Program-made: the position numbers and the translations under genes | The notes under the pieces: model-generated | Told to the model about the DNA's origin: nothing | The model's database searches: none | What the model saw: the letters and a program-made list of their open reading frames with translations, nothing else | Shown here: piece by piece, positions 3,900-53,059 of the stretch | Position numbering within the stretch: the first letter of the stretch is position 1 | How the letters are laid out: every line of letters begins with the position of its first letter | NCBI GenBank assembly: GCA_965655095.1 | Contig: OZ296657.1 | Coordinates: 33,790,001-33,854,000, forward strand | Direction: 5' to 3' | From: Haplodiscus bocki | Lineage: Eukaryota | DNA length: 64,000 bases

Positions 3900-4428
3900 A
3901 ATATGAGAAAAAAATCCTAAAACAAAAAAATTGAGAAAGTTAGACAAGGAAAATTTGGTATTTGTGGTCGTAGTGAATAAAAAACTTTTACTAACCAAAA
4001 GAATGAAGGAGAAGAAGAGGAATAGAAAAGGTAAAATTAAACAAAGTTCACCTATGTCAACTTCGGTGCGGTCCAAAATGAATAGCAAAGCTCATATTCT
4101 CAAGGTACATGATATGTCTCCGAGTGCTAAATGTAAATGTCAAAGTCAAGGGCTTTTTCTCCTACACAATTTCAACTGGAAAGAGCAGGATTTAAAAACA
4201 ACGAGGCTATAATTTCAAAGTGAGTCAAACAACTTTGAATAAATTTCTGAAGCCGGCTCGCAATGCAGCCGCACCCTTTACCGGTCTGGCTGTAGCTGCC
4301 AAAAGTAAAAATCCTCAAGTTGGGTAAGCAACGACTACTATCTTAAACTCAATAAGTCGTGAAAAAATACTGAGTTCAACAGACATGCATGATCACGGTT
4401 TGCGTCTAAAAGTTATGAAAATCCTTTA
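3900..4428 (+). pseudogene. Polinton basic (core-like) protein remnant
   Basis: K/R-rich frame (KEKKRNRKGKIK), then KFLKPARNAAAPFTGLAVAAKSKNPQVG ... SSTDMHDHGLRLKVM. Confidence 0.35.
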
Positions 4429-4448
4429 AAACAAACCTAATTAAACAT

Positions 4449-5098
4449 ATGAGCAGCTCAATTTGAGATTTATTCGACTATCCATTAGTTAGAAAATGTT
4501 GTGGAGGTTAAGTGATTTGTTCAAAATTTAAATTCAATAAACATAAAAAACAAAAAACGGGTTGAAACTTGTTTGAAAATTTCGTCGAAAAAAATATTTT
4601 TAAATAAATCTGCAAAACTTTTTTAAAAAGCAAAGGATTGGCAAAAAGCAACCCTGAAAATCCAAAACTTCCTAATAATAAAAATTATTGAAGAAACTAG
4701 AGGAAAGAGAAATAATGGTCAAAAAAAGAAGAAAAATAGATAAAACTTTCGCTTGATTGTAAACGCATGGAATAAGATTTAAAAAGCAATAAGAGGTAGA
4801 TCAAAATCATTTTCTACAATAGATATATTAGGAACGGACAATGATAACTATGAAAAAAGGATTGAATGTCAGATGACGCTGGAGATGAATTGGTCAAAAA
4901 TTGAAAGCAATCATGTTAAAACAACCTGATTATTCGAAGTCTCCAAAGATGAGGATTTTAACGGAGCTTTCAATTGGATTAAAACTCAAAAATTATTGAA
5001 GCGAATTCATCAGAAAACGAACTGAGTTTGATTTCTTAGCATACAGATTACAGTTTAATAGATCTTATCATGTTCTGAAGCTCAATGAAGAAGGATAA
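4449..5098 (+). pseudogene. HNH / endonuclease-VII-like nuclease remnant
   Basis: IDILG...IECQMTLEMNWSKIESNHVKT...AFNWIKTQ resembles the MxWxN..IDHxxP...FNxxNxQPL pattern of large-DNA-virus HNH nucleases. Confidence 0.55.
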
Positions 5099-5946: not shown

Positions 5947-7559
5947 TAATTGATGGAATTAACTGCAGAAGAAAAAATTGAGAGGTATGCTAAACAATGC
6001 ACACATTGTACACAGAACACATTACCACCATATGCATGCGAATGGACTTGTTGCTCATGTTGATATATTGCGAATAAACGAAAAAACGAACTAACAAAGA
6101 ACCAATGCAAAAAGTAACAGACTAAAAAATGCTGAGGAAAAAAGATTTTGTGTGTTTGTATTGCTTATATAAAAATTATGAAGATAGTAACTGCAGGGAA
6201 ATTTTTGAAGTTTTTATCAAGAGTAGAAAAGAACAGAAAATAAATTTTGAAAAAAATACTCGAGAACTATAAAAAAAATATTCAGATTTTCAATGATACG
6301 ACTATTATGTTAACAGCAAAAGTATTTGTAAAAGTGGACCTGATAGTATTTGAATAAAGAAATGGATGCCATGTTATGATAGATATTATGAAAGCATAAA
6401 CTAAAAAATTACCATTGAGCGTTTTCGCCGCTCTAAAAGAAATATCTGAAAAATAATATTTATGTAGATGTAAGAGATGAAAGATATATTATTCATGCAA
6501 CAGAAAAAACTTTATTAGGAAAACGAAAACCACCAAACTCTTTGAGAATTCTATATCAAATACAAAAGGAAACAAAAGTTAGAAAGAACCAAAACATATC
6601 AGAACAGAAAACAAACAATCAGAAATCAAACCTTCTCCAAAACGAAAATCAAACGAAAAACAAAAAAACCTTAAAAAAATATTAAATATCCAAGCTGCAA
6701 TCAACGTAAATGGATTGAATTTGATAGAAGATGTTTTTTTGTCAAAATTGTGAACTTATTTTTATTAAACAAAAACATCAATTAGATAAAAAGAGTACTC
6801 AAACAGGACAAGATTTTTTCTACGAGACTGTCTGATGCGAACAAAAAATCAGGGAGATATTTTTCTATGATGAGTAAAAAGTTTCAGACAATGGAATGTA
6901 TGATTGAGAAGTTTTGAAGTTTAGAAGGGAAAACAAAAATATTTATCAAGGTATAAGTGTTTATTATGATGGAATGAATTATTTGCGACAAAACAACACG
7001 TTTCAACTTGAAGAGGATCCTTTTGATAAAAATGCTCAAGGTACAATATTTATCATGCATGATATACTAAATCTAATGAAATTTATACAGAACAAACCAC
7101 AGGTTAAAAGTGAGAATATAATTTTTTATGACTTGTATAATACTGTTATTGGAAACTTGACTGAGGAGGAGAAAAATCAGGTTTCATAAAAAAAATTTCA
7201 AAATTTCTGAATTGTACAAAAAAAAGGACGCAAAATGCAAATGGTCCACAGATGTGAAATTTGAAATAGTGATATTCACAGAGCATCATTTGGTAACTTT
7301 TTATAATCAAAGAAGCATTTGAAAAACTTAGGACAAGAGATTACGATTACACCAGACTGGTTATTCCAAGAACCTAATGAAAAAGTTAACAATCCGGCCG
7401 GCTAGCACCAGCATATTTTTCGCCCAACTACAATAGTTTTGATCAACTTTTGCAAACGGTTAAAATCAAAACTAGTGTTTTGATATTAGTTTTCAAACGA
7501 GCTTTACAAACATCAGTTCGACCAATGATTTCTGTTTTTTATGCCAAAAGGTATCACTA

Positions 7560-8260
7560 TTTTCCGTTGAAAAACTTTTGTCTCCGGGTGCCGAGAAAAT
7601 TCGTCGAAGAACCTTTCTATGTTTCAGAAAAACTCTGGTAACGAAAAATGTTAGGGATAAGACAGGGGGCGGTAATCAATATTTTCTGTAAAAATTGTAT
7701 TGTCTCACAGTACCGAAAAGCTTCGTAGGGGAACCCTTCGGTGTTTGAGAAAGCTTCAGGTATCGAAACATTTTATGCTTCAGAGGGTTAAGTAACGATT
7801 TTCTGTCTAATATTTTTTTGTCTCGCAGTGCCGAAAAACCTCGTAAGCGAACGCTCCTTTGCTGTGTTTCAGAAAACTTCCTGTAGCGAAAAAGTTTATG
7901 GATGAGAGGGAGGGAAGGGGGGAGCGAGTATCGAGATTTTCTATCAAATATTTTTTGTCTCACAGTGCCGAAAAAAGCCGTAGGGGAACCCTCTAGTGTG
8001 TCTCTAATATCGGGTAATGGAAAATTTTGAGCTTCAGAGGTTCATGTCACATTTTTCTGTCGAAACTTTTCTGTCCCACAGTGCCAAAATTTTTTGTTGT
8101 GGAACCCTTCTGTGCTGTGTTTCAAAAAATTTCTGGTAGCGAAAAAGTTTTTGGATAAGACGGGGGAGTATCAAGAGTTTCCGTCAAAAATTTTTTGTCT
8201 CACAGTGCCGAAATTTTTCGTAGGGGAACCCTTAGTGTTTCACTAGTTTCGTGTATCGAA
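7560..8260. repeat. ~120-bp tandem repeat (about 6 units) inside the HINE
   Basis: Recurrent tttgtctcacagtgccgaaaa...gtaggggaaccc at ~7577, 7700, 7818, 7954, 8070 and 8194. Confidence 0.85.
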
Positions 8261-35100: not shown

Positions 35101-36242
35101 AGAAAAATACTTAGTACAAGATATTCACTGGTAATAAACTTTAAAAAACAGGTAAAATGGAAAATTCAGGATGCGTATGTTCTCAAAAGAACCAACTTGA
35201 TAATGGAGACCACATGGACACATGAGCAATTGCCTGAACGATGATTTTTTTAAAAAAAAGTTAGAAACTATTAGAAATTTTAGAACACAAAGGAATGAAA
35301 TAATTTGAAAGTTGGACGATTGAGTTATATACATCTTGCTCTGAGATTGCCTTACACAATTATATCTATACACGCATAAAAGTGCTGCAAAATGTTTTGT
35401 GAAATGCTTACCAAGCAAGGAATGAATTGATGAAATTAACTAAGGGGAATTCAGTGGAATCGAAGGCAAAAAATTGAATGTTTCGAAATAACTTTCTCAT
35501 ATATTGAATAGGTGGTCGTAGTCATTTTTAATTCTTCATACCGATTATGAAGTCTCTTAAGATGAATCACTTCATACTCCAGATGAGGAGTTCATTGATG
35601 ATGAAGATCTCTTCTAGTGCAGCAGAAAGTTGGAGCGGTAAAAATTCCTAATAACTGGTGGTCTATCAATTTAATTTAACTCTCGCTGTAGGACTTAAAA
35701 TTCTTTCCTAGCAAGGTACCAGCAGCTATCTGTCTGGTTTGGAATGGTTTTCGAAAAACTATTGTTATATCCACAAGCAGCGAAGCATTACCGATGATAA
35801 TCTGCCGCTTTTTTATAGCTTTGTTCAGCATAAAATGGCGTTTTGTAATCAATAAAGAATAATTCTTCAATCATTTTATTGAGCTTCTGAAAATAAAAGT
35901 AATAGAATCAGATTGTTATGAAAAAAAACGAGCAGAAAGTACCAAACCTTTTCACCAGGGATGCATCCACAAATACAAGAAGCGTTAATTCAACCCAAAA
36001 ATGTGCGAGAAGAATCAGTTTTCCCAAATGTTCTACGAAAGAAATGTTATTTTTTGCTCAAGCTACTTCCCGACTAGTATCGGTGAGGAAACGATTCTTG
36101 TCAGAAACAAACTAAAAGATATCATGCACCCTTCAATCAAGACGTTGGCACTGTTTTGTTCAGTCATCGCAGTTCGAAAAATGATTCCGAAAAACAATCC
36201 CTCAAAAAAATTGAGATTGATAAGCTATACCGCATTACTTAC

Positions 36243-37620
36243 TATCGCGTTACGCATAACGCTCTAACGTTAATTAATTAAAACATGATTGACTAATGAA
36301 AGCTAACCTTTTGAGGGACTGTCGTTTGATATATAAAAGAAATAGAAAAGCTGAAGAAAATAAATAAAACAATGGAGTTGCATAAATAATTTTTTACAAA
36401 AACTCTAACGCGAGCTTTTTTCCTATTGGCTCCTGCTGCGACAAGCAAAAATCCATGACTGCTACAAGCCTTTTTCCTATTGGTTGCATGAAACGGCAGC
36501 ATGCTGTTATTCTGGAGTCGATCTGGGAAACGGACTTGATCATAACTCGCTTTCCCGCTCAGCGGACGGGACTCCTTACTCCTCTTCTGACTTGCCTTAC
36601 CTTTTTACTTTACTCTTCTTCTCCCTTTTACTTGGAAAAGTTATTCTAAGTCCAACTCCCTTTCTCCCTTTTTCCTCTTGGACGAAAATTTTCTGAATCC
36701 AATTCCCCTTATCTTTCCTCTGGGACAAAAATATTCTAAGTCCAACTTCAATTCCACAAAATTATTCTAAGACAACTCCAAATTCTGTCTTAGCTGCAAT
36801 TTCATTCGCACTTCGCAAAATTATTCTAAGACACTTCCAAATTCTGTCCTAGCCGCAATTTCATTCCCACTCCGCAAAATTATTCCAAGACAATTCCAAA
36901 TTCTGTCTTAGCCGCAAATTCACTCTCATTTCACAAAATTATTCTAAGACAATCCTAAATTCTGTCTTAGCCGCTACATCATTTCAATCCTACAAAATAT
37001 TCTAAGTCCCAATTCTTCCTTACTTAGAAAAATTCCCCTTTCCCTGCTTATTTTACATACTCTTGCCATCGGAGTATAAACGGTCTCCACTGACGCTAGC
37101 TTCGGCATTGGCGTGTGCGGGTTCCGTGGATGAACTTAGGTTCTGAAGCTTGAGTGGATCTTAAATACGCACGAACCCTCACGAGGTTCTTAGGCAAAGA
37201 GAATTGACGTTACTCATAGACCATTCTCAACTCGTCTGCTTCCATGGTCTTTAGAATTTATTCTAAATTGCGAGTTATGGATTAAGAACGCAGAAACCGT
37301 CCATCCTTGATTTCCTTACTTCCATTCCTTGCATTGATTTGATACTTCCTACTCGATTCCTTCGCAAGTCAGGCCAAAAAGAGGAGAGTCCCTGAGTTAT
37401 CAGGAGATCATCCAGCTCCATCAACGGTAACCGTTAGTTAAACAGTTTCCTAGTTCAGACTGAGTAAATCTCTCTGATCAATTTTGACGTTTCATAAATC
37501 CCTTCCGCATTACGCGCTAGACAAACCACTCGGTTTGAAAGAAAGGGAGCTAAGAGAACATCATCAGGTTGCCGCTAAAACGCGAGCTTTTACCTGAGTA
37601 ATAGACAGAAATTAAACCAA
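36243..37620 (+). repeat. 5' LTR plus leader (LTR 3' boundary and PBS not resolved)
   Basis: Homologous to 48356-49612; TATA-like tatataaaag (36329) and gtataaac (37075); CCAAT-type ctattgg boxes. Confidence 0.7.
36757..36992 (+). repeat. 59-bp tandem hairpin array in the LTR (4 units; 2 units in the second LTR)
   Basis: Units at 36757, 36816, 36875 and 36934, each containing ctaagaca-N11-tgtcttag or a one-mismatch variant. Confidence 0.9.
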
Positions 37621-37639
37621 ATCAAACCCCGCCAATAAA

Positions 37640-38748
37640 TCGCCGCCGGAGATGGTGAAGAAATCCGAAATTTTCTTCATCGCATCAAGAAAACTGTGGA
37701 AAAAGGATGGCCAGACGATATGGAAGGAATTGCCCCAGCAGACCGTGGCGCTGAAAGAGCAGCTCAAGGACGACAAAGAAGACAGAGATACATCGACTAC
37801 TCTCTAGAAGGACTCAGACCGAGATATCTACAACGAAAAGCACAGGAGTATCTAATGGAAAACCCGAATGCTACATGGAATGACTTCTCAACGCGAATAA
37901 TTCAGAGGGATGTGTCCTTCCAAGTCTCTTCTAACTTTTTAAACGATGAAGAACAAACCAAAGCTCAGATGGCCACTCTGGGCCAAGAGATGAAGAATCT
38001 ACGATCAGAATCACAAGAACACCGAGTCAACGCCGTAGAGGGAAGCTCTCGAACAGTAGATCCAAATCAAAAAGGAAGACAGAATGCTACACGTTTTTGC
38101 AACTATTGCCGCACAAACGGACATACTCCAAGTTGGTGCCGCAAGAAGATACGGGACGAAGAACTGAAACGAATTGAAAACGAAAGAACTGCCGAGAAGA
38201 CAGTCACCTTTACCCAAGACTACAACAAAAAACGAGGACCAGATCATGGATCGCAACAATGGACTAGAGGTCAGGATTTCCAAGGGAGAAATAACAATTA
38301 TAATAACGACGGATTTAGAAGTTCCCCAAATAATTATCAAAATTTCTCTCCAAGACCAAACTCCGCATATGGGAATAACCGCCCAAACAATGGAGGATCA
38401 CTTGATCAACTACCAAATCAATCATTCAATGGAAACGATGGAAATAGATCCCGAAATGGATCCTTCAACAATCAGAATGGAAGCTGGCGGAACAATGGGA
38501 ACTTTTTCCGTTCTCCATCAAATCCAAGAAGAGATCTCTCACAAAACAATTCCTATCGCCCACCAGGAAATGAACAACCCAACAACTTTGCGTTTCGCAG
38601 ATCTGACAATCGACCTACAGCACACTTTACACCCTATGAACAGAAATTTCCGCAGAACAATAATCAGACATCATCTAATGTGGTTCGTTTCACCACAACC
38701 GATGATACCATAAACGAATTATCGGATCTTTGCCCGTTAAACTACTAA
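37640..38748 (+). CDS. gag: gag (apparently N-terminally truncated) with CCHC zinc knuckle and N/Q/R-rich tail
   Basis: CNYCRTNGHTPSWC (CX2CX4HX4C) at ~38098-38139. The open frame starts without an ATG at GDGEEIRNFLHRIKK. Confidence 0.85.
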
Positions 38749-38794
38749 GGTCTCCGAACTTGAACACTGACACATCTCGGAATTCAAGACTTAG
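38736..38794 (+). promoter_or_regulatory. Putative -1 ribosomal frameshift signal (G TTA AAC plus downstream stem)
   Basis: Heptamer is in gag phase, one codon before the TAA; pol lies in the -1 frame. Complementary pairs tccga/tcgga, cttgaa/ttcaag and ctaag/cttag follow. Confidence 0.7.
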
Positions 38795-39614
38795 CCTCAA
38801 CATCTTCTACTTCGCCACCGGAGACACTCAAAAAGATACTGGTTTAGAGATCGAATTCATGTTAGACACAGGAGCTTCTTGCTCAATCATCAATTACCGA
38901 ACATTTTGGGAAATTTGCCAATTACAGCACCCAATAACTATACAGAAAAGTACCAAAGTGACAAAGACTTACTCCGGACAAACAGTTCCAATGATCGGCT
39001 ATGCGACTATCACTTTTAGTTATGACCCAGATGGACAATTTATATTCCCACTAACAGTGTGGATCACTGATATGAGGACTCAGAATCTCCTTGGCATGGA
39101 CTTCTGCCAAAAACAGGTTTCTGGAATCCATTTTGATCTACCTGGGATCGAGATAAGGAACCCTCCTAAGTCAATCTGTTATGGCAGTTTCCACCAAAAC
39201 AAATCTTGTCCTCATTTATCACAAATCTTGACTATTAGAACCCTTCATACGATGCTTATTGATGCTAAGAGTGCCCGTTGCTGGAAATATTCGCCTACAG
39301 ACACTCATATACACTTCCCACCAAGCTCTACGTTTCAACCAAAACGAACTGCTGTGGCTACTGACCTGTTTTTCATAAATACTCTATGCACTCGATCTGA
39401 ATGTAACCTTCCAATATTGATGGAAAACAACAAAAATCACCAGATAACGCTACCAAAGGGACGTATCGGATTCTCTTCTTTTGACGTGGTTGATCGAGAC
39501 GAACCGAAATGCCAAATACGAAGTCCCTATGAGTTAACAAACGCTATAATCTCTACCGATGAACGATACAATGATTGTTTTCTCTTGCATTCAACGGTTC
39601 AAGCTCAGATTAGT

Positions 39615-40060
39615 GACGACTTTCTACAGATCACCTATGGTACAGAAGATTCAATTTTCCAACAACCTAATTCAATTGGACATTGCATATCCGCGGACGC
39701 CCGAATGGGTAAAAGTTTCGCTGATTTTCTTTCCCACAGAATCCCTGGTCTTAGATCAACCTGCCGAAAAGCAAAGCTTTTCATGCGACAAGTCTTCCCT
39801 TTTTGGGATTCAACAGGACAACGCTATATCTACAACTTGGTGACTAAAGGGAGGTTTTGTGATAAACCCAATTTACCAACACTGTCTAAAACATTAGAAG
39901 CAATGAAAATTCATGCAGGTACAAACGGTGTTTCTACTATCGCAATACCCAAACTTGGTTGTGTCCTAGATCAAACGAATTGGCAAGTGGTTGTAAAACT
40001 ACTTCGAGATATCTTCGCCTATGCTGACATATAAAATTGTAGACTATACTCTCGAAGAAA
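39615..40060 (+). other. TARG1/OARD1 (Poa1p-like) macrodomain within Pol
   Basis: SIGHCISADARMGK, YIYNLVTKGRFCDKP and IAIPKLGCVLDQTNWQVV are the hallmark motifs of the TARG1/DarG-like macrodomain class. Confidence 0.9.
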
Positions 40061-43000
40061 ATGGAGTTCACGCACTGTCCGCCAAAGGCGACGCTGAGTT
40101 CTATGCCGACGATGAGATAGAACGATACAGTGAAGAATTTCTCCTAGAGAACCGTGAGCTAGAAACAGACTTTACTAAAGATTCTAAATCCTGTCAACCA
40201 ACCTGTGACGAGCAATTTCCAGTTCTCCGTGAGAAGGTTCACAACAACCGACTCATTGATCATTATCTTCAATATCAGCCAAAAGAACTCAAAAACTACG
40301 TTAAAGAATTCGACTTCCAGTATTCAGACATCACTGACGAAGAAATGGTACTTTTGATTGACATGATAGTTGACGACGCGATGTTTATTCTCAACATAAA
40401 TTCGATGTGGGCAAAACCCGTCAGAACTTTCATGCCACACTGAAACCCAATGTTGAACTGAAACGAGAATGACCTATCAATGTTCCCCTACACCTGAAGG
40501 AAAAGCTAGAAAAACTCCTCACACAACTAAAAGACGCAGATATCATTCGCGAAATGGGTGACAACAACGAGATGGGATCATTATTTGTGAATCCGATCAT
40601 CCTAATGCCTAAAAACGATTATGTGAAATTAGTGATTGACGCGAGATACCTTAATTCAGTGACTGATCTTATAAACTACTCCTGGCCCTTAGAACCAGTG
40701 CAGATGATTATGACCAGGGTCAATGGCAAAAAATTCTCAGTAAGCGACCTTTCGTTTGCCTATCATCAAGTTCCATTGAGCCCAGAAACACAAAAGTTAA
40801 CTAGTTTCATCATTGGTGGAAAACAGTACACCTACACATGTGGATTTTATGGCTTGTGCGGACTCCCAAACTTCTTCAGCCGATTAATGACAATACGTTT
40901 TGACCCACTTATCAAGAAAGAGCAAGCAATCACCTACATTGATGATACAATAATGCAATCACAGAACAAGAACGAAATGTTCACAGTTATCAACGAGTAC
41001 CATACCCTTCTTCGGAAGGCAGGTCTTAAGGCAGCACCCGACAAAACGTTCTTCTTCTTAAAGAAAGTTTAATTTCTTGGCCATGTTATATCCTCAAAAG
41101 GAATCCAACCCATTGCGAAACGAGTAAAGGATTTAAAGGATCTTAAATCACCTGAAAGTAAACGAGACGTCATGAAAGTTCTTGGATGCCTTGGATTCTA
41201 CAGTTGCTATATTAAAAACCTCCATGTGGATAGTCAGCCCTTTTATGACTTAATTAGGGATTCGACCCCTTTCCACTGGACACACGAACACGAAAAATTG
41301 TTCCAAACGATCAAGGACAGAATTAGCGAAGACACGATCCTTGCTGTACCCTCCAATGATTATCCCTTTCACATTCACGTAGATTCATCGAATGTTGGAA
41401 CGGGCTGTATCCTAATCCAACAGTTTCCTGAGGGAAAACGAATAATCTCCTTCAACTCAAGAATTTTCGACAAAGCTAAACAGAAAATGTCTACTCTTCA
41501 TCGAGAACTTTGTGGAAAAGTCTCAGCCTTACAAACCTATGAACACTATATTATTGGATCTCCTTTTCCCATATATCTATATTGTGACCATAAACCATTC
41601 CTGTACTTATGGAGACGTAAAGGACAACTATCCCATCGGTTCTTCAGGTACCAAGTCATCATAACGAAATTCCAAAATCTCAAGATTATCTGGACCCCAG
41701 GATCAAATCATGTTTTCCCTGATATCTTAAGCCGAAACGTAACAGTCGAAGAATACCAGAAACATCAGCTACAACTTAAGAAAATACCTAGGGACATAGA
41801 ATTCTATGACGAACATGGCTCTCCAGCAACATATCGAATTCAACAGGATGATAATCCTAACGACACTTGCAATGACTTCTACCCAATCCATTGCCAACAA
41901 GGAATTGATAGCAAGGTACTCCGCTTGCATAATGATGGTGAAACTTTTACACTAAATAGTCTGATTAACGAGTTTCCTTCAACACCAATACAATCTGCAG
42001 CCGATTGTTTCCGATTAGGCAGAACATTCAATCAATTCCGACGTTTGCGTCTACCCTCAACTCAATCTTTGAACTCGGTAGAAGCCTCTGAACCTACTTA
42101 TAGTTCGATAAATTCATTGAACACTAGCGAAGATGATAATACATTCGAAGAGACCTATGATAACGAAGGCGATGCCGCCGCTGTTGACGATGAGGACAAC
42201 CTAATATGTGAAATGAACACACACGCCGACCACTACAGATTGTGCAAAGCCAAAGCAGCTCACGATGCTGTCTCAGGAAAATTAAACGCTTCCTTAGTTA
42301 AGAAACCACTAACAGTTAATGATGCACCGCATTTGGAAACTAAACCTTTAATTGCTAAACTAGATGATGTTGCTAAAACAGTTGATCTTGACGTATCCAC
42401 GATCCTGGCAGAATAAATTAAAGACCCAGTGCTTGGAACAGTTAGGTCATGGATCCGAAAAGGAATTTCACCCGAACCTAAAACTCCTGAGATTCAACAA
42501 ACAAAGGGACTCTTGAGATAATGTCAAGATTTCGATCGACTCTTAATTGAGGAAGAAGGACAACTCTTATGCTACAACGAAACTACTGACAAACTAGGCG
42601 ATGAAAACCTACGATTTTGCCTACCTTTATCCCTATTCTTAGCATGTTTCAGACTCGAACATTACAACGAAATGGGTGGAAACATGGCAGCCGCAAAGAC
42701 CTATAACAATGCAAAACGATTCTACTACTAGCCTGGCGTGTTTGATTGGATATGAGCGCTTACCGCTGATTGTCTCACTTGCCAAAAAAACAAACCGAAG
42801 CCTAAACACAGGAACGAAGTACCACTAGAAGAATGGCAAAACGAGACTGTCCCGTTCCGAACAATTCACGTAGATCACAAAGGACCACTTCACCCACCAA
42901 GTAATCGAAATCTTCATTGCCTCTTGGTCATCGATGCATTCTCTCGATTCTTAATGGTATACCCAGTTACTAACACGGGTGCTCAAGCTACTACTTCCGC

Positions 43001-44220
43001 CGTCGAGAAGTGGATTCATTCCTTCGGAATCCCTCAATCTATTGTGCATGATCGAGGTGCGGCTTTCATCAATACCGAATTCATTAACTGGACAAAAGAA
43101 TTGGGAATCACTTTACGACCTAGAACAGCACATTCACCTTGGACTAATGGCAAAATTGAAACTCAAAACCAACATATCGCCCGCTATTGCCAAAACTTCT
43201 TGAACGACGCTGAAACAATTGGTCTTCCTTGGCACCTAAATTTGCTTTTGCACACAACACAAGTGTTAACTATATAACTGGGAAAACACCTTATGAAATT
43301 GTTTTTGGTACCAAACTTCAGATCCCTATGTCTCTCAAACCTGGACTTTACCGCAACAAACACAAAATTTGCTGTTCTGATTTCTGCAAAGACCTACCAT
43401 CTCATTCACATAGTAAGAACAATTTAAAGAATCAGCTACTAGACAATGTTCTTCGACCACAACTTTCTCACGCCCTCCTGGAACGAGAACGCGATTTTCA
43501 AAAGAATCTACTCTGCTACTTTCGAAAGATGCCGCGAGCAAACAGCCAGATCACATGCCTACAGAAATCGATTCAAACCAGGACAACACTTAGAGATAGG
43601 ACAGAAGGTTCTCCATGAAAATCATCGCCAAGGCATTTCCAAGAGCCAAAAGCTTCAACAAAGACGACTCGGAACTTTCACGGTTATAAAATGAGTAACT
43701 AAAACAACCTACCAAATTCAAGATGATAAGGATCCTATGGTTCTGAAGAGCAAACTATTCTCCTCTCAGCCTTACAACAATTTACAAAATTTCCGCACTT
43801 CAAAAACACACATCCTTTAACTAGACACTTAGTCATGGAACTCATCCGTCAGTGTCAATCTTCGATCTCTGAAGATCAGGCAACAAGCCCAAAACGCAAC
43901 AAAACAAACCACGATTAAAGATATCCAATGGTTGAGGTGAGTTATTTTTACATATTGAATTTGGCACTTTTTTGGTGATACCGGTTTCATTCCGGCACCT
44001 TTTATAAAATCTCGACGTCGTTTTAACAGTAGTGGAGCTACTACTATAAAATTTTAGCCCCCACTTTGTGTTAGTGCCCACAAAGCGCCGGTTTGATATT
44101 ACGGCATTTTTTAATAGCTATTCCTCTGAAAAAATAGAGTGAACTTCCACTGGGAAACCCCGTGACGACGCTATTTTCCTTTTTTTTAATAGTTATTCCC
44201 TCTGAAGTAACATTCCAGAG

Positions 44221-46407
44221 ATGGAACGTCCGCTGCAAAGTTCAGCGACGACGCTATTTTTCTTTCAACTCCTCGTGTTTTGTTCCGAGGTTGGTTACAC
44301 TTTAGTTCCAGATGCAGACCAGGTTGCCCCAGCTCCTAAAGTGTCTCACTTCGACTGCAGCTCAATGACAGAAAACTCCCTTTATGCAATCAATCAAGTA
44401 CGGCCGTGTCACATTACACCAGAAGAACTGGAAGTCAGCAAAGCCACAATTACACTTTACACCAAACACTTTCGGAAAGAACTTAATGCAACAAAATGCC
44501 GAATACAACACCAACGCGAGAAGTGGCACTGCGTACATAACGACCATAGTAGCATTGACCACACTATTGCTGGAATAACCAGTGATTTGATTATCTCACC
44601 AGAACATTGCCGAACTCTTGCAAAAGGAGCCAATATCAATTTACAAGGCGACTGGATTGGCGCTGAATGGGACACAAAGACTCCTGTTGTTAAAGTTTCT
44701 GGTGATCCGTCAGGCTCAAATAGAAATCATTGCAAAACGAGAGGCTGGATTTCAAGGGATACCTTCATCATCCACATGCAGAAGACAACTCTAAAAGTCA
44801 CGATGGAAAAAGGAAAAGTGTTATGTGATATGGGATTGATTTTACCTTGCGCTTTAGAAGAACTTGGTTGCGAAACAACTTCACTCGACCCATATGCCTA
44901 CACCTGGGACTACCCTGACAATTGGTTGCTTTCCGTCCTCCGAACAGAAGAAGTCAACATGGTTAAACAAGACACAAAAGACTACGTCATTAGCGGGAAG
45001 GACTCTACGTCCAAATTTGTGTTTGAAGTTAAACATAATCCACAAAAACATTGCGGGAAGCCTACACCTATTTATCCGACAAATTAAGACTCTTTGTATA
45101 TGGCCCGACTTAGTGAAGGTTTCGACAAGAACACTGGAAGAAACCTTGACCGTGAGAAGAACGGCGCAACTAAAATTCTTCAGTAATTCGGACCGAGAGC
45201 GAAAAATGACTTTGGTCAACTCTATGCGCATAACCCTCAATTGGAAGGCACTCAGTTACAACAAGCAGACAACCCGAATAGCTACTTGAACATGGATTAC
45301 GAAATGCACCTCGGAACCAAGATAGACTATCTGTTCTTCCAAAGTTCGAGACTCCTCCAAGCGACTGAAATACAGCTACTACAGAACCAATGTGAACAAG
45401 AGCGCACCCAGATTTTCACTAATCTGATGCTCGCTCTCGACAACCCACGGTTACCAGGCTATATGCTAACAGGGAATAGATCTATGTTCCTAGAAACAGA
45501 CGGCAGCCTTGCCTGGCTCTATCATTGTCCGAAGGTCCACTCCCCACTCCATACGATGAATCAGTACTATGATAAGATACCCATACTCTACGAAGGTGAA
45601 ATTCGCCTCGTCGACCCAATTACACGACAAACTTATCCTGACGCTGTTCCACAGAACTGCTCAGATCGGATCCAGAACCTCTTCCAACTTGATATGGATC
45701 AAGAAGATTCCTGGTACACACTCACGCCTGGCATAGTACACCAGGACAGATCCGCTATCTTTGGACCTAAGAAGATAACACCGATGTCTGCGCAGTCTCT
45801 CACTGGATCACAGGATGCCGGCATGTATACAAGAAACGAACTTCGCGGATTCTGGGACAATATTCTCATTAATGCAGCTTCAAGAACCGCGCTAAAAAAG
45901 TTTTCCCAGAACCTGATTATTTACTCTACTTCTCCGGAAGGATCTGACGGATTCCACTATTACACTCCCAGAATTGAATTTTATGTGGACAAAATGATAT
46001 CCCGGAATGCTTCAAAGACCGGTTCATGGACACGTTTGGACCTGTTGCATATGTACTTGAACACTGCGGGATTTATTTCTCTGTGTTTTTATTTTTCAAA
46101 CTCATAATAGACGTTGTGGTTATGGTAATACGCCACTTACAAATCTCTAGAATGACCGGTGCATCGCTTGGGTTCGGTAAGACCCTTCTAAGCGCCTCAT
46201 ATAACATCTTCCTCATGTCAGTGTTAACTTCAATGTATGATCCACGCACGCCTACACTCGCCGCGGTAGAAGAAGAAAGAAAAACTCTCTGTAACGGAGA
46301 AGAGTTACATGATATGAGAGACACTCCTACGAAAAAGGAGGAGCATATTTATCCTGTCATGAACCGGCTCAATTTAACCAAGCCGTGACACCAATTTCCC
46401 CCGTTTA
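44221..46407 (+). pseudogene. env: env-like glycoprotein, chuvirus-G-like / class III fusogen
   Basis: Signal peptide MERPLQSSATTLFFFQLLVFCS. Cys pattern HFDC..RPC..TKCRI..WHC(V)HNDHSS, then heptad LQATEIQLLQNQCEQER. C-terminal TM CGIYFSVFLFFKLIIDVVVMVI. Two stops (45085, 45184) and frameshifts near the 3' end. Confidence 0.8.
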
Positions 46408-46456
46408 ATTTTGTCTTACTTTTTTTAGGCCAAATTACACTCAATCCTTCCACCTT

Positions 46457-47052
46457 GTGACGATTCTCTTTCAGTCATCTCCGACCCAGAAGAAGATTTC
46501 CGACCCTTTACGCCCTCAGGCTTGGACCATCCTACTAACTCTGGCATCACTTTCCTATCTCCTATCTCTTCTCACTCACAGATACCCTCTAACCCAGCTT
46601 AGCCTGATGAGCCGCAATCTCTAACCTTGCTATCGACTAGTCAGCCCCCACCTATACACCAAGACGACGCCCCTCCTACATTAATTGGCTCACAAATCCC
46701 AATTTCTTCACCTGAAGCTAGTCCTTCCGAAGACAACCAAGAACTTCCCCCACTTAGTTCCTTTCTCTCTGACGTTCGGCCCCTTCTCTCCAGGCCTAAT
46801 CAACTCAAACTTCAACCTGATCAATCTGTTCTTGGACGCCAACACCGTCGTGAATATTACACAAATCATGCCCGCAGAACAAAACGACCCCGCTTTAATC
46901 AACAATTACAATATTGCCTCAAACCAGAGTTCTGCAAGTGGGAAAAAATATTTTGGGATGGCAAGCGTCAAGAATATACAATTCAGAGCACATCTCTCCC
47001 GTCTCAACGCCTGGTAGTACCGCCACAGGCAATCACAGCACTTCCTCACTGA
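46457..47052 (+). pseudogene. Accessory ORF of unknown function (Pro/Ser-rich, basic NLS-like RRTKRPR)
   Basis: Frame of ORF 46627-47052 extends upstream through one stop. Its TGA overlaps the next ATG (TGATG 47050-47054). Confidence 0.5.
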
Positions 47053-48314
47053 TGTCGCTAAATCCTCTTGCACCCGTTTTCCTTCCTCCTCCTCAACCTT
47101 CCTCTGACCCACCTATTTTGTTGTGCAACCCTCCTACAATGGGTATTCCCTTGGCTCAATTAGTTTGCGGAATGCTCCCACAAACTCTTCCCTCTCATGC
47201 TCCTTCTACCAACCAGCACATTGTTGACAACACTCTCCTCTTACCTCTTCTCCAGCCGACAACTCAGTTTTAGCCGGACGCAGCAGTTCCCCCGCCAGCC
47301 CCTGGAACCACTTGAATACAGAACAAATAGACAGGCAAACATTACGACTCATTCTACTCCAATTACAAAATGATTTTGCCTTACTGCGATATTTACTCTT
47401 CTCTAACAAGGAGTTCGCCGCTAGACGCTCTGCTGCCAGTCCTTTACCTAACCCTAAGCCTAACCCTACTTCCACTTCTTCTGCTCTTCCACATTGAGGC
47501 CCTCGTGACCCCACACTTCATCGTCTTACCCCGGTGGGCGCTGTGGGAACAGCCAAAACAAGAACAAACGATACTACACACACCAATTCTCAGCCGACAC
47601 CCAACTCGCACGAAGCCCCTTCGATCAAATTGCAGAACCTTACATCAAGATTCTCCAAATTAGAAAAGTTGTTTGCCAATGAAGTATCAAGTTACACATC
47701 CATCACTGCGGGAATCCACTCCCAATACTTTTTCCTATACGATAAACTTCGCCAGCTCGAACCTGGACATTCAGATGTCATTATTTGGAAAATCCCAAAT
47801 CCCCTCAGTGAAGTTTGTATTTGACTCCGCAAAAGTGGCCCGACCATCATCAGATCCCCTCATCGAACCAGCTACAAGTTTCAGCAGCCCCATTTTCAGG
47901 ACTCACCCCCATGGCTATAACTTCTTCATCAAACTCTACCCGTATGGTATTGGACCCGCTACGGGTAAGTGCGCTTCGATCCTATTCACACTTTTCCCAG
48001 GAGACTATGACAATCTTCTCCAATGGCCCTTCACAAACATCATCCATATTGGTATTCGAGACCAGCTGGACCCAATGAACACCTGGATGAAGACAATCAA
48101 ACCCGATCAAGACCCAGCTTACAAGAAGCCTACAATGACAACAAAAACTGGAGTTGCAACAAGCCTAATTAATAACTTTATTCCCCACTCCAAACTGTTT
48201 AGGGAAACTGAAGGTTCTCTAATTGATGGTGCGTTCTTTATTGAGATTAAATTTTCTGACCCGCTTGTGCTGGAACCTCACACGCAAACTTCCCTCCTTT
48301 TCCCTTTTCCGTAG
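47052..48314 (+). pseudogene. Accessory ORF: PAM2-like motif + Pro-rich + coiled coil + TRAF-type MATH domain (no RING)
   Basis: VIIWKIP..SFSSPIFRTHPHGYNFFIKLYPYGIG..SILFTLFPGDYDNLLQWPF..IRDQ..AYKKP..NFIPHSKL..FFIEI is TRAF-C. Removing a 7-bp duplication (aaatccc 47790-47803) restores the frame. Confidence 0.88.
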
Positions 48315-48340
48315 AGCCCCTCACTCATTTTCACTTCCCT

Positions 48341-48352
48341 TTGAGCGGGGTG
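48341..48352 (+). promoter_or_regulatory. Short polypurine-tract-like site before the second LTR
   Basis: ttgagcggggtg immediately precedes agttatcgcg, where LTR homology begins. Confidence 0.5.
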
Positions 48353-49612
48353 AGTTATCGCGTTACGCATAACGCTCAAACGTTAATTAATTAAAACATG
48401 ATTGACTAAGGAAAGCTAACTTTTGAGGGGTTGTCGTTTGATATATAAAAGGAATAGAAAAGCTGAAGAAAATAAATGAACCAATGGAGTTGCATAAATA
48501 ATTTTTTACAAGAATTCTAACGCAAGCTTTTTTCCTATTGGCTCCTGCTGCTACAAGCAAAAATCCTTGACTGATACAAGCCTTTTTCCTATTGGTTGCA
48601 TGAAACGGCAGCATGCTGTTATTCTGGAGTCGATGTGGGAAACGGACTTGATCATAACTCGCTTTCCCGGTCAGCAGACGGGACTCTTACTCCTCTTCTG
48701 ACTTGCCTTACCTTTTTACTTTACTCTTCTTCTCCCTTTTACTTGGAAAAGTTATTCTAAGTCCAACTCCCTTTCTCCCTTTTTCCTCTTGGACGAAAAT
48801 TTTCTAAGTCCAATTCCCTTATCTTTCCTCTGGGACAAAAATATTCTAAGTCCAATTTCAATTCCACAAAATTATTCTAAGACAATTCCAAATTCTATCT
48901 TAGCCGCAAATTCACTCTCATTTCACAAAATTATTCTAAGACAATCCTAAATTCTGTCTTAGCCGCTACATCATTTCAATCCTACAAAATATTCTAAGTC
49001 CCAATTCTTCCTTACTTAGAAAAATTCCCCTTTCCCTGCTTATTTTACATACTCTTGCCATCGGAGTATAAACGGTCTCCACTGACGCTAGCTTCGGCAT
49101 TGGCGTGTGCGGGTTCCGTGGATGAACTTAGGTTCTGAAGCTTGAGTGGATCTTAAATACGCACGAACCCTCACGAGGTTCTTAGGCAAAGAGAATTGAC
49201 GTTACTCATAGACCATTCTCAACTCGTCTGCTTCCATGGTCTTTAGAATTTATTCTAAATTGCGAGTTATGGATTAAGAACGCAGAAACCGTCCATCCTT
49301 GATTTCCTTACTTCCATTCCTTGCATTGATTTGATACTTCCTACTCGATTCCTTCGCAAGTCAGGCCAAAAAGAGGAGAGTCCCTGAGTTATCAGGAGAT
49401 CATCCAGCTCCATCAACGGTAACCGTTAGTTAAACAGTTTCCTAGTTCAGACTGAGTAAATCTCTCTGATCAATTTTGACGTTTCATAAATCCCTTCCGC
49501 ATTACGCGCTAGACAAAGCACTCGGTTTGAAAGAAAGGGAGCTAAGAGAACATCATCAGGTTGCCGCTAAAACGCGAGCTTTTACCTGAGTAATAGACAG
49601 AAATTAAACCAA
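48353..49612 (+). repeat. Second (shared) LTR plus leader
   Basis: Copy of 36243-37620 with two fewer 59-bp units. Confidence 0.8.
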
Positions 49613-49631
49613 ATCAAACCCCGCCAATAAA

Positions 49632-50740
49632 TCGCCGCCGGAGATGGTGAAGAAATCCGAAATTTTCTTCATCGCATCAAGAAAACTGTGGAAAAAGGAT
49701 GGCCAGACGATATGGAAGGAATTGCCCCAGCAGACCGTGGCGCTGAAAGAGCAGCTCAAGGACGACAAAGAAGACAGAGATACATCGACTACTCTCTAGA
49801 AGGACTCAGACCGAGATATCTACAACGAAAAGCACAGGAGTATCTAATGGAAAACCCGAATGCTACATGGAATGACTTCTCAACGCGAATAATTCAGAGG
49901 GATGTGTCCTTCCAAGTCTCTTCTAACTTTTTAAACGATGAAGAACAAACCAAAGCTCAGATGGCCACTCTGGGCCAAGAGATGAAGAATCTACTTTCAG
50001 AAATACAAGAACGCCGAGTTAACGCAGTAGAAGGAAGTTCTCGAACAGTAGATCCAAACCAAAAGGGAAGACAGAATGCTACACGATTTTGCAACTATTG
50101 CCGCACAAACGGACATACTCCAAGTTGGTGCCGCAAGAAGATACGGGACGAAGAACTGAAACGAATTGAAAACGAAAGAACTGCCGAGAAGACAGTCACC
50201 TTTACCCAAGACTACAACAAAAAACGAGGACCAGATCATGGATCGCAACAATGGACTAGAGGTCAGGATTTCCAAGGGAGAAATAACAATTATAATAACG
50301 ACGGATTTAGAAGTTCCCCAAATAATTATCAAAATTTCTCTCCAAGACCAAACTCCGCATATGGGAATAACCGCCCAAACAATGGAGGATCACTTGATCA
50401 ACTACCAAATCAATCATTCAATGGAAACGATGGAAATAGATCCCGAAATGGATCCTTCAACAATCAGAATGGAAGCTGGCGGAACAATGGGAACTTTTTC
50501 CGTTCTCCATCAAATCCAAGAAGAGATCTCTCACAAAACAATTCCTATCGCCCACCAGGAAATGAACAACCCAACAACTTTGCGTTTCGCAGATCTGACA
50601 ATCGACCTACAGCACACTTTACACCCTATGAACAGAAATTTCCGCAGAACAATAATCAGACATCATCTAATGTGGTTCGTTTCACCACAACCGATGATAC
50701 CATAAACGAATTATCGGATCTTTGCCCGTTAAACTACTAA
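49632..50740 (+). CDS. gag: gag, second copy (same N-terminal truncation)
   Basis: 350-aa ORF nearly identical to 37696-38748. Confidence 0.85.
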
Positions 50741-50965
50741 GGTCTCCGAACTTGAACACTGACACATCTCGGAATTCAAGACTTAGCCTCAACATCTTCT
50801 ACTTCGCCACCGGAGACACTCAAAAAGATACTGGTTTAGAGATCGAATTCATGTTAGACACAGGAGCTTCTTGCTCAATCATCAATTACCGAACATTTTG
50901 GGAAATTTGCCAATTACAGCACCCAATAACTATACAGAAAAGTACCAAAGTGACAAAGACTTACT
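50722..50965 (+). pseudogene. pol: Truncated pol (protease N-terminal half), second copy
   Basis: LDTGAS present; homology to copy 1 stops after gacttact (50965). Confidence 0.9.
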
Positions 50966-53059
50966 TCTGCTACTATCGCTAATGCGTGATTCATTTTCCA
51001 TTAGCGCAGTTGTTTCTTTTCCCATTTGATTATATTTGCTTCCCCGGATGACTGAATAATTGATTATTTCACTTTCAATTTTCCCTCCATCGCTCATAAA
51101 GTCCTTGCTTTGAACTTACGCAATTTTTGTTCGCGAGGCCTGCAAGGCACCTGAAAGTAGATCAATAAAAGCCCCTGAGACTTATTTCCATTAAACAAAA
51201 CAACTGCTGCGGCGCCACCGCTGTATTGATCTAGCTAACAAAAGGAACGCTAATCACCTGCAGCACTAATCGAGAGAGAAAATTAGAACTAGAAAAAGAA
51301 TTAAATTCAAGCATTAGTTCTACTCTCCGCATGCCCGTAGTAATATAGCGTTCCCCCTTACCCCCTCGCGACATTACTTTCATTGCCAATATATTCTGCT
51401 AGAAAAGAAATTCTTTTTGAAAAAATATTTACCCAGTAAGTTTTAAAGGACGTCTGAACTGTGCTTCTGTAACGAAAAAAAACAAGTAAAGATTAGTGAG
51501 TTCTGAAAATTTCAAGACCTGCTACTGGGACAGCGACTTTCAGAGCTCTTGTCAAGAAAGAAAGACTTTGTAACTTTGTCCGAGTTTTCGCAACACTATA
51601 TCACTGCAGGCAATACCTTTCGGAAACGGCCTTTCACTACTTCTCTCCTATCTGATTCGAGGCAAAAAGTGAACCTAGATGTTTAATATTTTGATCTATT
51701 TATTATGATCCTCAGTCATACTTTTGCCAGAAGTTTCGAACTTCACACTTCAAGGCAGTGTTTTTGTTTTCCATGAGTATTTTGAGTCAGATTCACGCTC
51801 ACTAGAATCTAGAATACGTTATCACAATCTAACAAAATTCGCGCAATCTTTTCCGTATTTTGGCATAAGATCCAGTTTATGGCTTGCATGGAATCGTCAT
51901 ATAATATGTTTTTTCAATGAATTGCATGTTACTATACCCTTCTATGGAACTTCAGCAATGAACTGTCCAATTTAAAAAATTAACTGATAAATATTAGCTA
52001 TAATCCCAACAAGTCTTTACCTCCTTACTGAATAGCTTTCTGGAAAAATTATCCATACTTTCTGGACTGGCAGCTCTTTATTCATTGGGTCAACAAGATT
52101 TGTGTGAAACTGAGAGTTCACTTAAATGGCTTGTTGGCAGACAGCTGGTTTTTGAGGTGAACATTCTCTCACTTCTTGAAAATTTTCTCACTCAGAAGAC
52201 TTGGTCGACTTTTAAGGAAGGTTTTACGAAACGCATTGCAAATAGTAGACGAGCCCATTTCAACTCATTCAGAACCACACTTCAAAGGTTCTCGGGAAGT
52301 TGTTTTGCACATTTTTCGGCATTTTTAAAGTTTTGAAATGTAGCATTTAATTAGAAGAAGAAGAAGAAAAAGAAAAAGAGTTTATTTCTCTATCAGTAAA
52401 AATACAGTACAACAATTTATCACGGAAACAAAGTTATAGAGTAAACAACAAATGGACCACACGGGACTTTTTTTACTGTGGCCCACAAGACCAAATATTC
52501 ATCAATTCAACGAAACCTCAGTCAAGCCAAGTCAAAACATGATAATAACGAGATAACACATCCCAAAAAAATATAACACAGAAATGGTCAATTTTTTTTC
52601 AGTATTTCAGTTTTTCAGAACCTTTTTGCAAATTGATAGCAAAAAAACCCAAACAGAGACCTTGGCCAACATTAATTGCATTTTGAAATCAGCACGGATT
52701 TTCAGCTGAACCGATTTCTGTCAGAGATAAATCCGAAAAACTCACTTAGCAAATAGGAAAGCGAAAAAAATCGGAACATTTTTGCCCATACCCTACACTT
52801 GCTTCATTTTCTCCCGGGCCCTGCCAACCAAAACCTCTTCCCTCTAGTAACACCGCCTTGTACCGATAGACCTCTGATAGTTCCATCCACTGGACATGGA
52901 CCGTCTAACTTAGCTCAAACAGAGTGGGGATTGGTTGGCAGAACCACTACGAGAATACGAGGTGAAGCATAAACTCAAAGAATATGAAAAAAAAAGATGA
53001 AAGTTCATCGACAGTTTTTAACAGACAAAGATGTAGTTGACCAGACCACTGTTCCCTAG

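Follow-up and report, generated by a model that had tools for sequence, protein, structure and literature searches.

The 64,000-nucleotide stretch of the Haplodiscus bocki genome analysed here (the window) contains, inside an LTR retroelement, an open reading frame with a coiled coil and a TRAF-C (MATH) domain, which raises the question of whether the element captured a host TRAF gene, whether that gene serves the element and, if so, in what role. An earlier note had read the frame as a retro-captured, RING-less TRAF decoy that trimerises and blocks receptor motifs as a dominant negative. The domain identification was borne out: the peptides quoted in that note lie in the frames 47498-47824 and 47664-48314, the domain matches Pfam TRAF-mep_MATH at E 4.4e-17, and all 28 PDB sequences matched at E ≤ 0.01 are TRAFs (best, 5.9e-13). 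The fold predicted by AlphaFold2 for a natural sister copy (mean pLDDT 76) has TRAF1 as its top Foldseek match (E 2e-11). As also claimed, the ORF is intronless, carries a 7-bp tandem duplication at 47790-47803, and sits within the element, about 40 nt short of the LTR; a CxxC pair was found in 0 of 57 intact copies, and no RING or zinc finger was called by Pfam.

The gene is, however, both longer and more heavily damaged than first described. It begins not at 47620 but at an ATG at 47052, approximately 190 codons earlier, and the window copy is not broken by the duplication only; it carries four lesions, the others being two nonsense codons, at 47271-47273 and 47495-47497, and between them, near 47290-47306, the loss of ~76-82 nt, which breaks the frame. 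Intact copies from family A, one of four element families, encode 446-465 aa that start with PAM2 and a low-complexity stretch, continue with two coiled coils separated by a linker, and end in MATH, the previously overlooked half holding the PAM2-type motif and the first coiled coil. The features of the gene and its element are given in the table.

Table. Features of the TRAF-derived gene and of the retroelement insertion that carries it, in window coordinates.
Feature	Position	Strand	Remark
Left 4-bp target-site duplication	36239..36242	+	Identical bases at 51374-51377
LTR, 5′ part	36243..37645	+	Repeated at 48356-49637
gag, 5′-truncated	37646..38748	+	489-codon sister gag matches Retrotrans_gag, E 9e-7
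pol, gypsy order, broken	38706..43743	+	Pfam: protease, Macro-like region, RT, RNase H, integrase
env, viral fusion glycoprotein type, broken	44221..46388	+	PF24664, E 1.8e-9 and 1.7e-18
Pyrimidine tract + AG, putative splice acceptor	46415..46428	+	Opens ORF4
ORF4, ~207 codons, broken in window copy	46429..47052	+	C-terminal 60 residues conserved
Stop-start overlap, ORF4 stop / TRAF ATG	47050..47054	+	
TRAF-derived accessory gene; pseudogene in window copy	47052..48314	+	Last ORF of element
PAM2-type motif, residues 1-12 (L3, N4, A7, F10, P12)	47052..47087	+	
Coiled coil 1 remnant	47306..47404	+	Homologous to host paralogs
Coiled coil 2 (TRAF-N)	47627..47761	+	Helix 2-43 in model of natural sister copy
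MATH/TRAF-C	47774..48260	+	Frameshift from 7-bp duplication at 47790-47803
Purine-rich tract before LTR	48343..48354	+	Read from sequence; sisters share context
Second LTR (5′ part) and tandem truncated gag/protease	48356..50962	+	99.1% to 37645-38975 over 1329 nt
LTR 3′ end, then right target-site duplication	50963..51377	+	89.9% over 356 nt to sister LTR 3′ end

One insertion of 15.1 kb (36243-51373), with a 4-bp duplication on both sides, accounts for all of these features and represents a tandem Ty3/gypsy derivative that has suffered deletions. The LTR 3′ part, the primer-binding site, and the start of gag are deleted (~2.1 kb relative to a sister copy), and pol stops at a 3.2-kb deletion, as seen against 15 sister stretches. 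Sister elements measure ~20 kb as a sum of separate pieces, are ordered gag-pol-env-ORF4-TRAF, and, in four of four cases, have full LTRs of ~2.3-2.4 kb and 4-bp target duplications. The Ty3/gypsy (Metaviridae) assignment follows from the LTRs, the target duplication, the PR-RT-RH-IN order, and env, the 722-codon sister frame of which matches PF24664 at E 1.6e-36; a search of env against PDB sequences returned no match. Identity across the compared part of the LTRs reaches 99.3% or more in seven of 12 pairs and is 88-98% in the remainder. The window insertion appears to be polymorphic: one contig of run X2 joins position 36238 to 51374, leaving the site empty, and run X4 from the same sample contains the filled junction of this heavily decayed copy. 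All four runs compared with the window have the character of DNA contigs and so carry no information about transcripts.

Several further characteristics of these elements and their surroundings were recorded. In four elements (L160, L161, L164, and L166), the LTR ends are TATCG...CGACA rather than TG...CA, and a primer-site-like stretch led by TGG begins 3 nt past the LTR. Tandem elements with a common LTR occur at ~17.65-kb spacing (L163 and L171; G000:C1:162.18-162.21 Mb). The Macro-like domain in the protease-RT interval (window ~39640-40030, and pol of L040) scores 16.7 bits against PF01661, for which the cut-off is 22. Between pol and env, sisters have a 3.2-kb spacer (L040:4900-8100), deleted in the window at ~43743, with three sense ORFs of 127-157 codons and one antisense ORF of ~210-240 codons; these have dN/dS values of 0.12-0.28 and match no Pfam family above cut-off. 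Outside the insertion, a degenerate array of ~120-bp repeats spans 7543-8239 and its flanks, and none of 12 window-flank ORFs tested matched Pfam.

The decay of the window copy is not representative of its sisters. A first look with the window query returned 4070 candidate places, 150 of which were scored and found to be 89-100% identical; 105 of the 150 are open over 440 codons, in line with the expectation that sister copies would share the ORF, and three have a stop in MATH. When this genome was searched with divergent queries, families B (B1 and B2), C, and D were recovered as well. Intact ORFs were found at 15/30 (A), 13/18 (B1), 6/6 (B2), 17/26 (C), and 6/24 (D) loci, which are best protein matches rather than a random sample and therefore bias dN downward. 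Of 34 copies, 33 have pol upstream of the TRAF ORF and 31 have env there as well (in family A, 17 and 15 of 18; B, 5/5; C, 5/5; D, 6/6). A ~1.8-kb tandem array of D-type TRAF matches lies at C4:103.37-103.40 Mb.

Substitution patterns were examined as pooled pairwise NG86 estimates, for which pairs are non-independent and no intervals are given. In the same 15 family-A copies, dN/dS was 0.05 for RT, 0.07 for integrase, and 0.08 for MATH, with values of 0.06 for RNase H (12 copies) and 0.10 for env (14 copies). By region of the family-A protein (truncated L066 left out, at most 60 pairs per comparison), dN/dS was 0.07 in MATH, 0.16 in coiled coil 2, 0.13 in coiled coil 1, 0.37 in the N-terminus, and 0.50 in the linker. 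Elsewhere, MATH gave 0.10 (B1-B2), 0.14 (C), 0.27 (D), and 0.45 (B1 alone). Between families, synonymous sites are saturated and MATH is 39-53% identical versus 85-94% for RNase H; frames retained across saturated synonymous sites make neutrality impossible. The copy comparison proposed in the earlier note thus shows, at the level of codon substitution, that the TRAF ORF is under purifying selection in four families. In the A-B comparison, env is 93% identical, with a synonymous distance under saturation, and MATH is 53% identical, hinting that env or the 3′ cassette may have been exchanged between families A and B.

The source of the gene could be traced within the host. The 1.5-Gb genome contains spliced TRAF genes, and two of them, L052 and L053, have both coiled coils and MATH in common with the elements; close to the end of MATH these host genes are interrupted by an intron, which is missing from the elements (the evidence for introns being GT-AG ends in the genomic sequence and joined orthologs). 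Coiled coil 1 of families B2 and C matches host L052 at E 1e-12 and 7e-15, respectively; that of family A alone does not match significantly (E 2.3), and its position was set by alignment. Coiled coil 2 aligns with its counterpart in the host paralogs. Phylogenetic analysis against host TRAFs placed all elements in one clade (100/100), which groups with L052/L053 and their orthologs from other records (98/95) apart from RING-type TRAFs, although both trees bring long branches together and have few outgroup sequences; no additional MATH outgroup drawn from multi-domain proteins passed the filter used. Grouping with the host canonical intron-bearing zinc-finger TRAF (L031/L050/L051) was rejected (p-AU 0.022). 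The earlier proposal of a retro-captured TRAF accessory gene is therefore well supported by its presence in sister copies, purifying selection, the missing host intron, and a single clade beside the host paralogs.

The gene was apparently captured once, from a spliced transcript of this paralog clade, and comparison with the paralogs shows a capture in which MATH and the two coiled coils were retained, whereas a zinc-finger exon and the MATH intron were lost. In L053, the large exon is preceded by one with a Met and a single Cys-rich finger remnant, recognized by eye (Pfam makes no call), and two orthologs on short contigs begin at the equivalent Met; no equivalent of this exon was found for L052. 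No RING exon was seen in the 20 kb upstream of the donor paralog, and the donor was probably already RING-less before capture. Six further loci (L054-L058 and L060) are decayed copies, with several stops, of another host-type TRAF paralog.

The position of the gene within the element points to how it may be expressed. In 36 of 38 full-length A-C frames, ORF4 opens directly past a pyrimidine tract and AG, and an in-frame Met is absent from 37 of 39 full-length ORF4 frames; splicing onto this putative acceptor can be inferred. ORF4 has in-frame dN/dS values of 0.24 and 0.13 (a value of 1.40 came from off-frame reading and was rejected) and matches no Pfam family. Assignment of its C-terminus (window 46855-47049) as an HSF-type DNA-binding domain, scored 0.89 in the atlas, was not confirmed, with Pfam matches in 0 of 6 and a pTM of 0.32 for the single-sequence model. 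The ORF4 stop lies within 5 nt of the TRAF ATG in all 72 A-C copies with a located start (80 loci examined), overlaps being spelled TAATG, TGATG, or ATGA; in family D, the stop is ~55-60 nt upstream. Between the acceptor and the TRAF start, family C has 0-2 ATGs (none in 6 of 11) versus ~8.6 in base shuffles, and family A has 2-4 versus 6.7, the shuffles not being controlled for codon bias. Given the overlap and the scarcity of ATGs, the TRAF start could be reached by either reinitiation or scanning.

The same overlaps (UAAUG, UGAUG, and AUGA) are known from reinitiation in calicivirus, influenza B TURBS, and SART1 (PMC10275272, PMC11921876). Unlike in TURBS, UGGGA in the element corresponds to Trp-Asp/Glu codons ~98 and 113 nt upstream. 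A TURBS was rejected, as TCCCA occurs in the host 18S only at 288 and 938 of 1837, outside what is presumed to be the position of the ES7/h26 helix.

The N-terminus of the TRAF-derived protein in families A-C conforms to the PAM2 consensus, xxLxxxAxxFxP, which is described as occurring in disordered regions (PMC6486636). This pattern is found at residues 1-12 in 47 of 51 intact A-C copies and in 0 of 6 family-D copies, nowhere else in A-C proteins, and not once in 97,592 six-frame flank residues. L3, N4, A7, F10, and P12 are constant across A, B1, B2, and C while neighbouring residues vary, and in five of six family pairs the similarity of residues 14-60 does not exceed that of shuffled sequences. 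The four N-terminal peptides, with scores of 19.1, 15.4, and 15.4 bits and one without a match, fall below the Pfam PAM2 (PF07145) cut-off of 20. Composition suggests that the region is disordered. Three of the four sub-families thus carry a putative PAM2 tag, a motif type that typically grips poly(A)-binding protein. Family D has neither PAM2 nor the stop-start overlap, yet its MATH dN/dS is 0.27, indicating that PAM2 is dispensable for retention; because family D forms the outer branch of the midpoint-rooted RT tree, PAM2 may have been added after capture. A search for a host PABP MLLE found none, and the single MLLE recovered belongs to an MLLE-HECT gene, L178 being an MLLE-HECT exon of a UBR5-type gene.

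The second departure from the donor is in the receptor groove. In TRAF2, hot spots are F410, L432, F447, F456, and C469, with S453-S455, R393, and Y395 also contributing (PMC6125299). TRAF2 positions were mapped onto the elements through P0282 to 1ca4. Of the 13 positions used, four (D399, S467, G468, and P470) were included on the assumption that they also belong to the groove. Host paralogs have R393, F410, and G468 in 8/8 rows and Y395 in 7/8. In the elements, the F410 and G468 equivalents are changed in all four families, and the R393 equivalent is K, R, Q, or N, with R in family B only; Y395 and F456 equivalents are largely retained, and neither elements nor donors have the serine triad. 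The groove destruction that the earlier note had named as an argument against its own reading is therefore partial, and the elements lack the hot-spot pattern of TRAF1/2/3/5-type receptor binders. Across families, identity is 0.15 at the 13 groove columns, part of which form a loop of uncertain alignment, versus 0.53 at other MATH columns, and only 0.015% of random column sets are as low; in host paralogs, the groove is at 0.81 versus 0.72 elsewhere in MATH. Within families, groove codons have pN < pS in six of six comparisons and lie above the rest of MATH in five of six. The residue comparison shows a family-specific groove, and changed specificity fits this pattern better than mimicry of the donor, with partial relaxation of constraint as something that may contribute.

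Taken together, the TRAF ORF is almost certainly a captured gene that has an accessory function in a complex Ty3/gypsy lineage with env. A groove changed from the donor and between families makes a receptor-occupying decoy unlikely and a rewired trimeric adaptor likelier, and the sequence features described above suggest, with a probability of roughly 0.45, that the main job of the protein is that of an adaptor whose PAM2 tails engage MLLE proteins. Under this model, a spliced subgenomic RNA would yield the protein through reinitiation at the ORF4 stop-start or scanning to an early AUG, and the protein would trimerise through coiled coil 2 and MATH, displaying three disordered PAM2 tails. The tails would bind MLLE domains, most likely the one in poly(A)-binding protein, the groove would hold a family-specific partner rather than a classical PxQxT receptor tail, and that partner would be tethered to polyadenylated RNPs. 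Such tethering could favour stability, translation, or assembly of element RNA, or blunt silencing.

Trimerisation, as the earlier note proposed, is plausible given the long predicted helix and the TRAF-C fold, and a heterotrimer model just reaches the mark used. Two chains of P0270 (a host-type ortholog from another record, standing in for the host) and one element chain were modelled at 0.68 versus 0.48 for the best of three controls, with at least 93% of contacts shared between runs, partner pLDDT of at least 82, and predicted contacts that include the conserved GDYD loop. The mark is reached by 51/78 solved and 2/108 mismatched microbial pairs and by 39/65 and 2/126 eukaryotic ones; because structures of like complexes exist and close relatives also reach the mark, likeness alone may explain the score.

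This model bears on the strongest alternative, in which the protein poisons host complexes by co-assembling with RING-less TRAF paralogs through the coiled coil 2 and MATH interface. Each trimer would then lack a native groove, receptor avidity would drop, and death or stress signalling would be damped in expressing cells, a dominant-negative effect achieved without occupying receptors. Subunit poisoning accounts for family D and agrees with the heterotrimer prediction, the solved TRAF1:TRAF2 heterotrimers (PMC4858697), and the one TNFR cysteine-rich match in the genome, and it could coexist with the PAM2 role. It is nevertheless a minority reading, perhaps half as probable as the adaptor, in that the model margin lies exactly at the +0.20 threshold with a stand-in for the host chain, and within-family groove constraint and PAM2 retention are left unexplained. 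A somewhat less probable scenario is lentivirus-style counter-defence, whereby the groove would be re-specified in each family for a host restriction or silencing factor and PAM2 would hand that factor to PABP-bound RNPs or UBR5, the protein being expressed from a bicistronic, spliced cassette of a complex element that has several other accessory ORFs under selection.

Two more specific readings are improbable. The original decoy, in which a trimer without RING would cover the TRAF-binding tails of receptors and so block NF-κB signalling, draws on the presence of TRAF-N and TRAF-C without RING and on the largely retained Y395 and F456 equivalents; moreover, the serine triad is dispensable for receptor binding by TRAF4 and TRAF6 (PMC6125299), and a changed groove may therefore retain binding. 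A competitor should, however, mimic its donor, the groove of which is near-invariant, and the element groove is unlike it and variable between families. Dominant negativity by virtue of a missing RING is likewise poorly supported, as the RING was probably missing in the donor already, and an NF-κB read-out is doubtful given that no Rel domain was matched in the genome, in a search without positive control. A comparably small chance attaches to a Vif-like degrader, in which the groove would grip a host restriction factor and PAM2 would bring an MLLE-HECT ligase of the UBR5 type in place of the RING. The MLLE-HECT gene is present, the UBR5 MLLE binds PAM2 and targets Paip2 (PMC11326040), and the turnover of the groove and of MATH relative to RNase H fits an arms race; on the other hand, the UBR5 MLLE binds PAM2 more weakly than PABP does (PMC11326040), no target is known, family D has no PAM2, and no site was found with pN above pS. 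Finally, neutral cargo amplified with a young element, its frames still open from recent bursts, would suit the near-identical LTR pairs and the dead window copy but is hardly credible, being already contradicted by frame, fold, acceptor, and stop-start kept among four families despite saturated synonymous sites and by a MATH dN/dS of 0.08, where an off-frame reading of ORF4 gave 1.40.

Capture of a TRAF domain by a gypsy-type element has a precedent in planarian Burro (GYPSM1), which has thousands of copies, a mononegavirus-like env, and a MATH_TRAF_C domain within ORF1 or, in Dugesia tigrina, in an accessory ORF; interference with apoptosis and ubiquitination was proposed (PMC6431247). Since MATH_TRAF_C is already recorded there, the kind is known, and the H. 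bocki element, which shares with Burro the gypsy LTR type, MATH_TRAF_C, and env, is a variant of it. Burro is over 30 kb long and is described as having a giant polyprotein, env between gag and pol, and BIR, BCL2, and ankyrin domains, none of which was found here; by contrast, the H. bocki element is ~20 kb and is ordered gag-pol-env-ORF4-TRAF, and its TRAF gene has PAM2, two coiled coils, and a host donor that can be traced. The capture was apparently independent of Burro's, judging from the host-specific donor clade in a tree that contains no Burro MATH. ORF111L of the megalocytivirus ISKNV, a fish iridovirus, is likewise a virus-captured TRAF with coiled coil and MATH, but the virus has a DNA genome, and the protein, which still has a RING-type finger, promotes apoptosis and binds TRADD (PMC3352826); a captured TRAF is thus not necessarily an inhibitor. 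TRAF1 resembles the element protein as a RING-less scaffold and forms homo- and heterotrimers (PMC4858697, PMC6125299), but it keeps the three hot spots and can act positively or negatively, while the element protein lacks these hot spots and has a PAM2 tail. The "ancient errantiviruses" (PMC13524379) are similar env-carrying, multicopy Ty3/gypsy elements with gag-pol-env and recent activity, but the main text of that report contains no mention of TRAF, MATH, Macro, or "accessory". In the literature covered, which did not extend to repeat databases, subscription papers, or supplements, no description was found of the element architecture, the traced donor, the PAM2 graft, or groove turnover. 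Searches of metagenome contigs found nothing with P0288, and the two bacterial matches to P0218 (a host or element gene) were rejected as chance coiled coils; a viral scan identified one unrelated TRAF with the full RING-zinc finger-coiled coil-MATH order (viral contig L181:8768-10471).

DNA viruses and lentiviruses are familiar carriers of captured accessory genes, whereas in the LTR elements of invertebrates such genes have seldom been traced. Here, a single genome contains the donor along with four diverged families, and shows the loss of the intron, the grafting of a domain, and selection. For annotation, the ~4,000-4,750 candidate places found per query in the first look, which are not copy numbers, could pass for a huge expansion of host TRAFs. 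What a retrotransposon gains from a TRAF domain, a question since Burro, is now testable using isolated domains and peptides. That TRAF was captured a second time, apparently independently, suggests convergence of such elements on TRAF pathways, and the PAM2 graft would connect a signalling fold with poly(A) biology.
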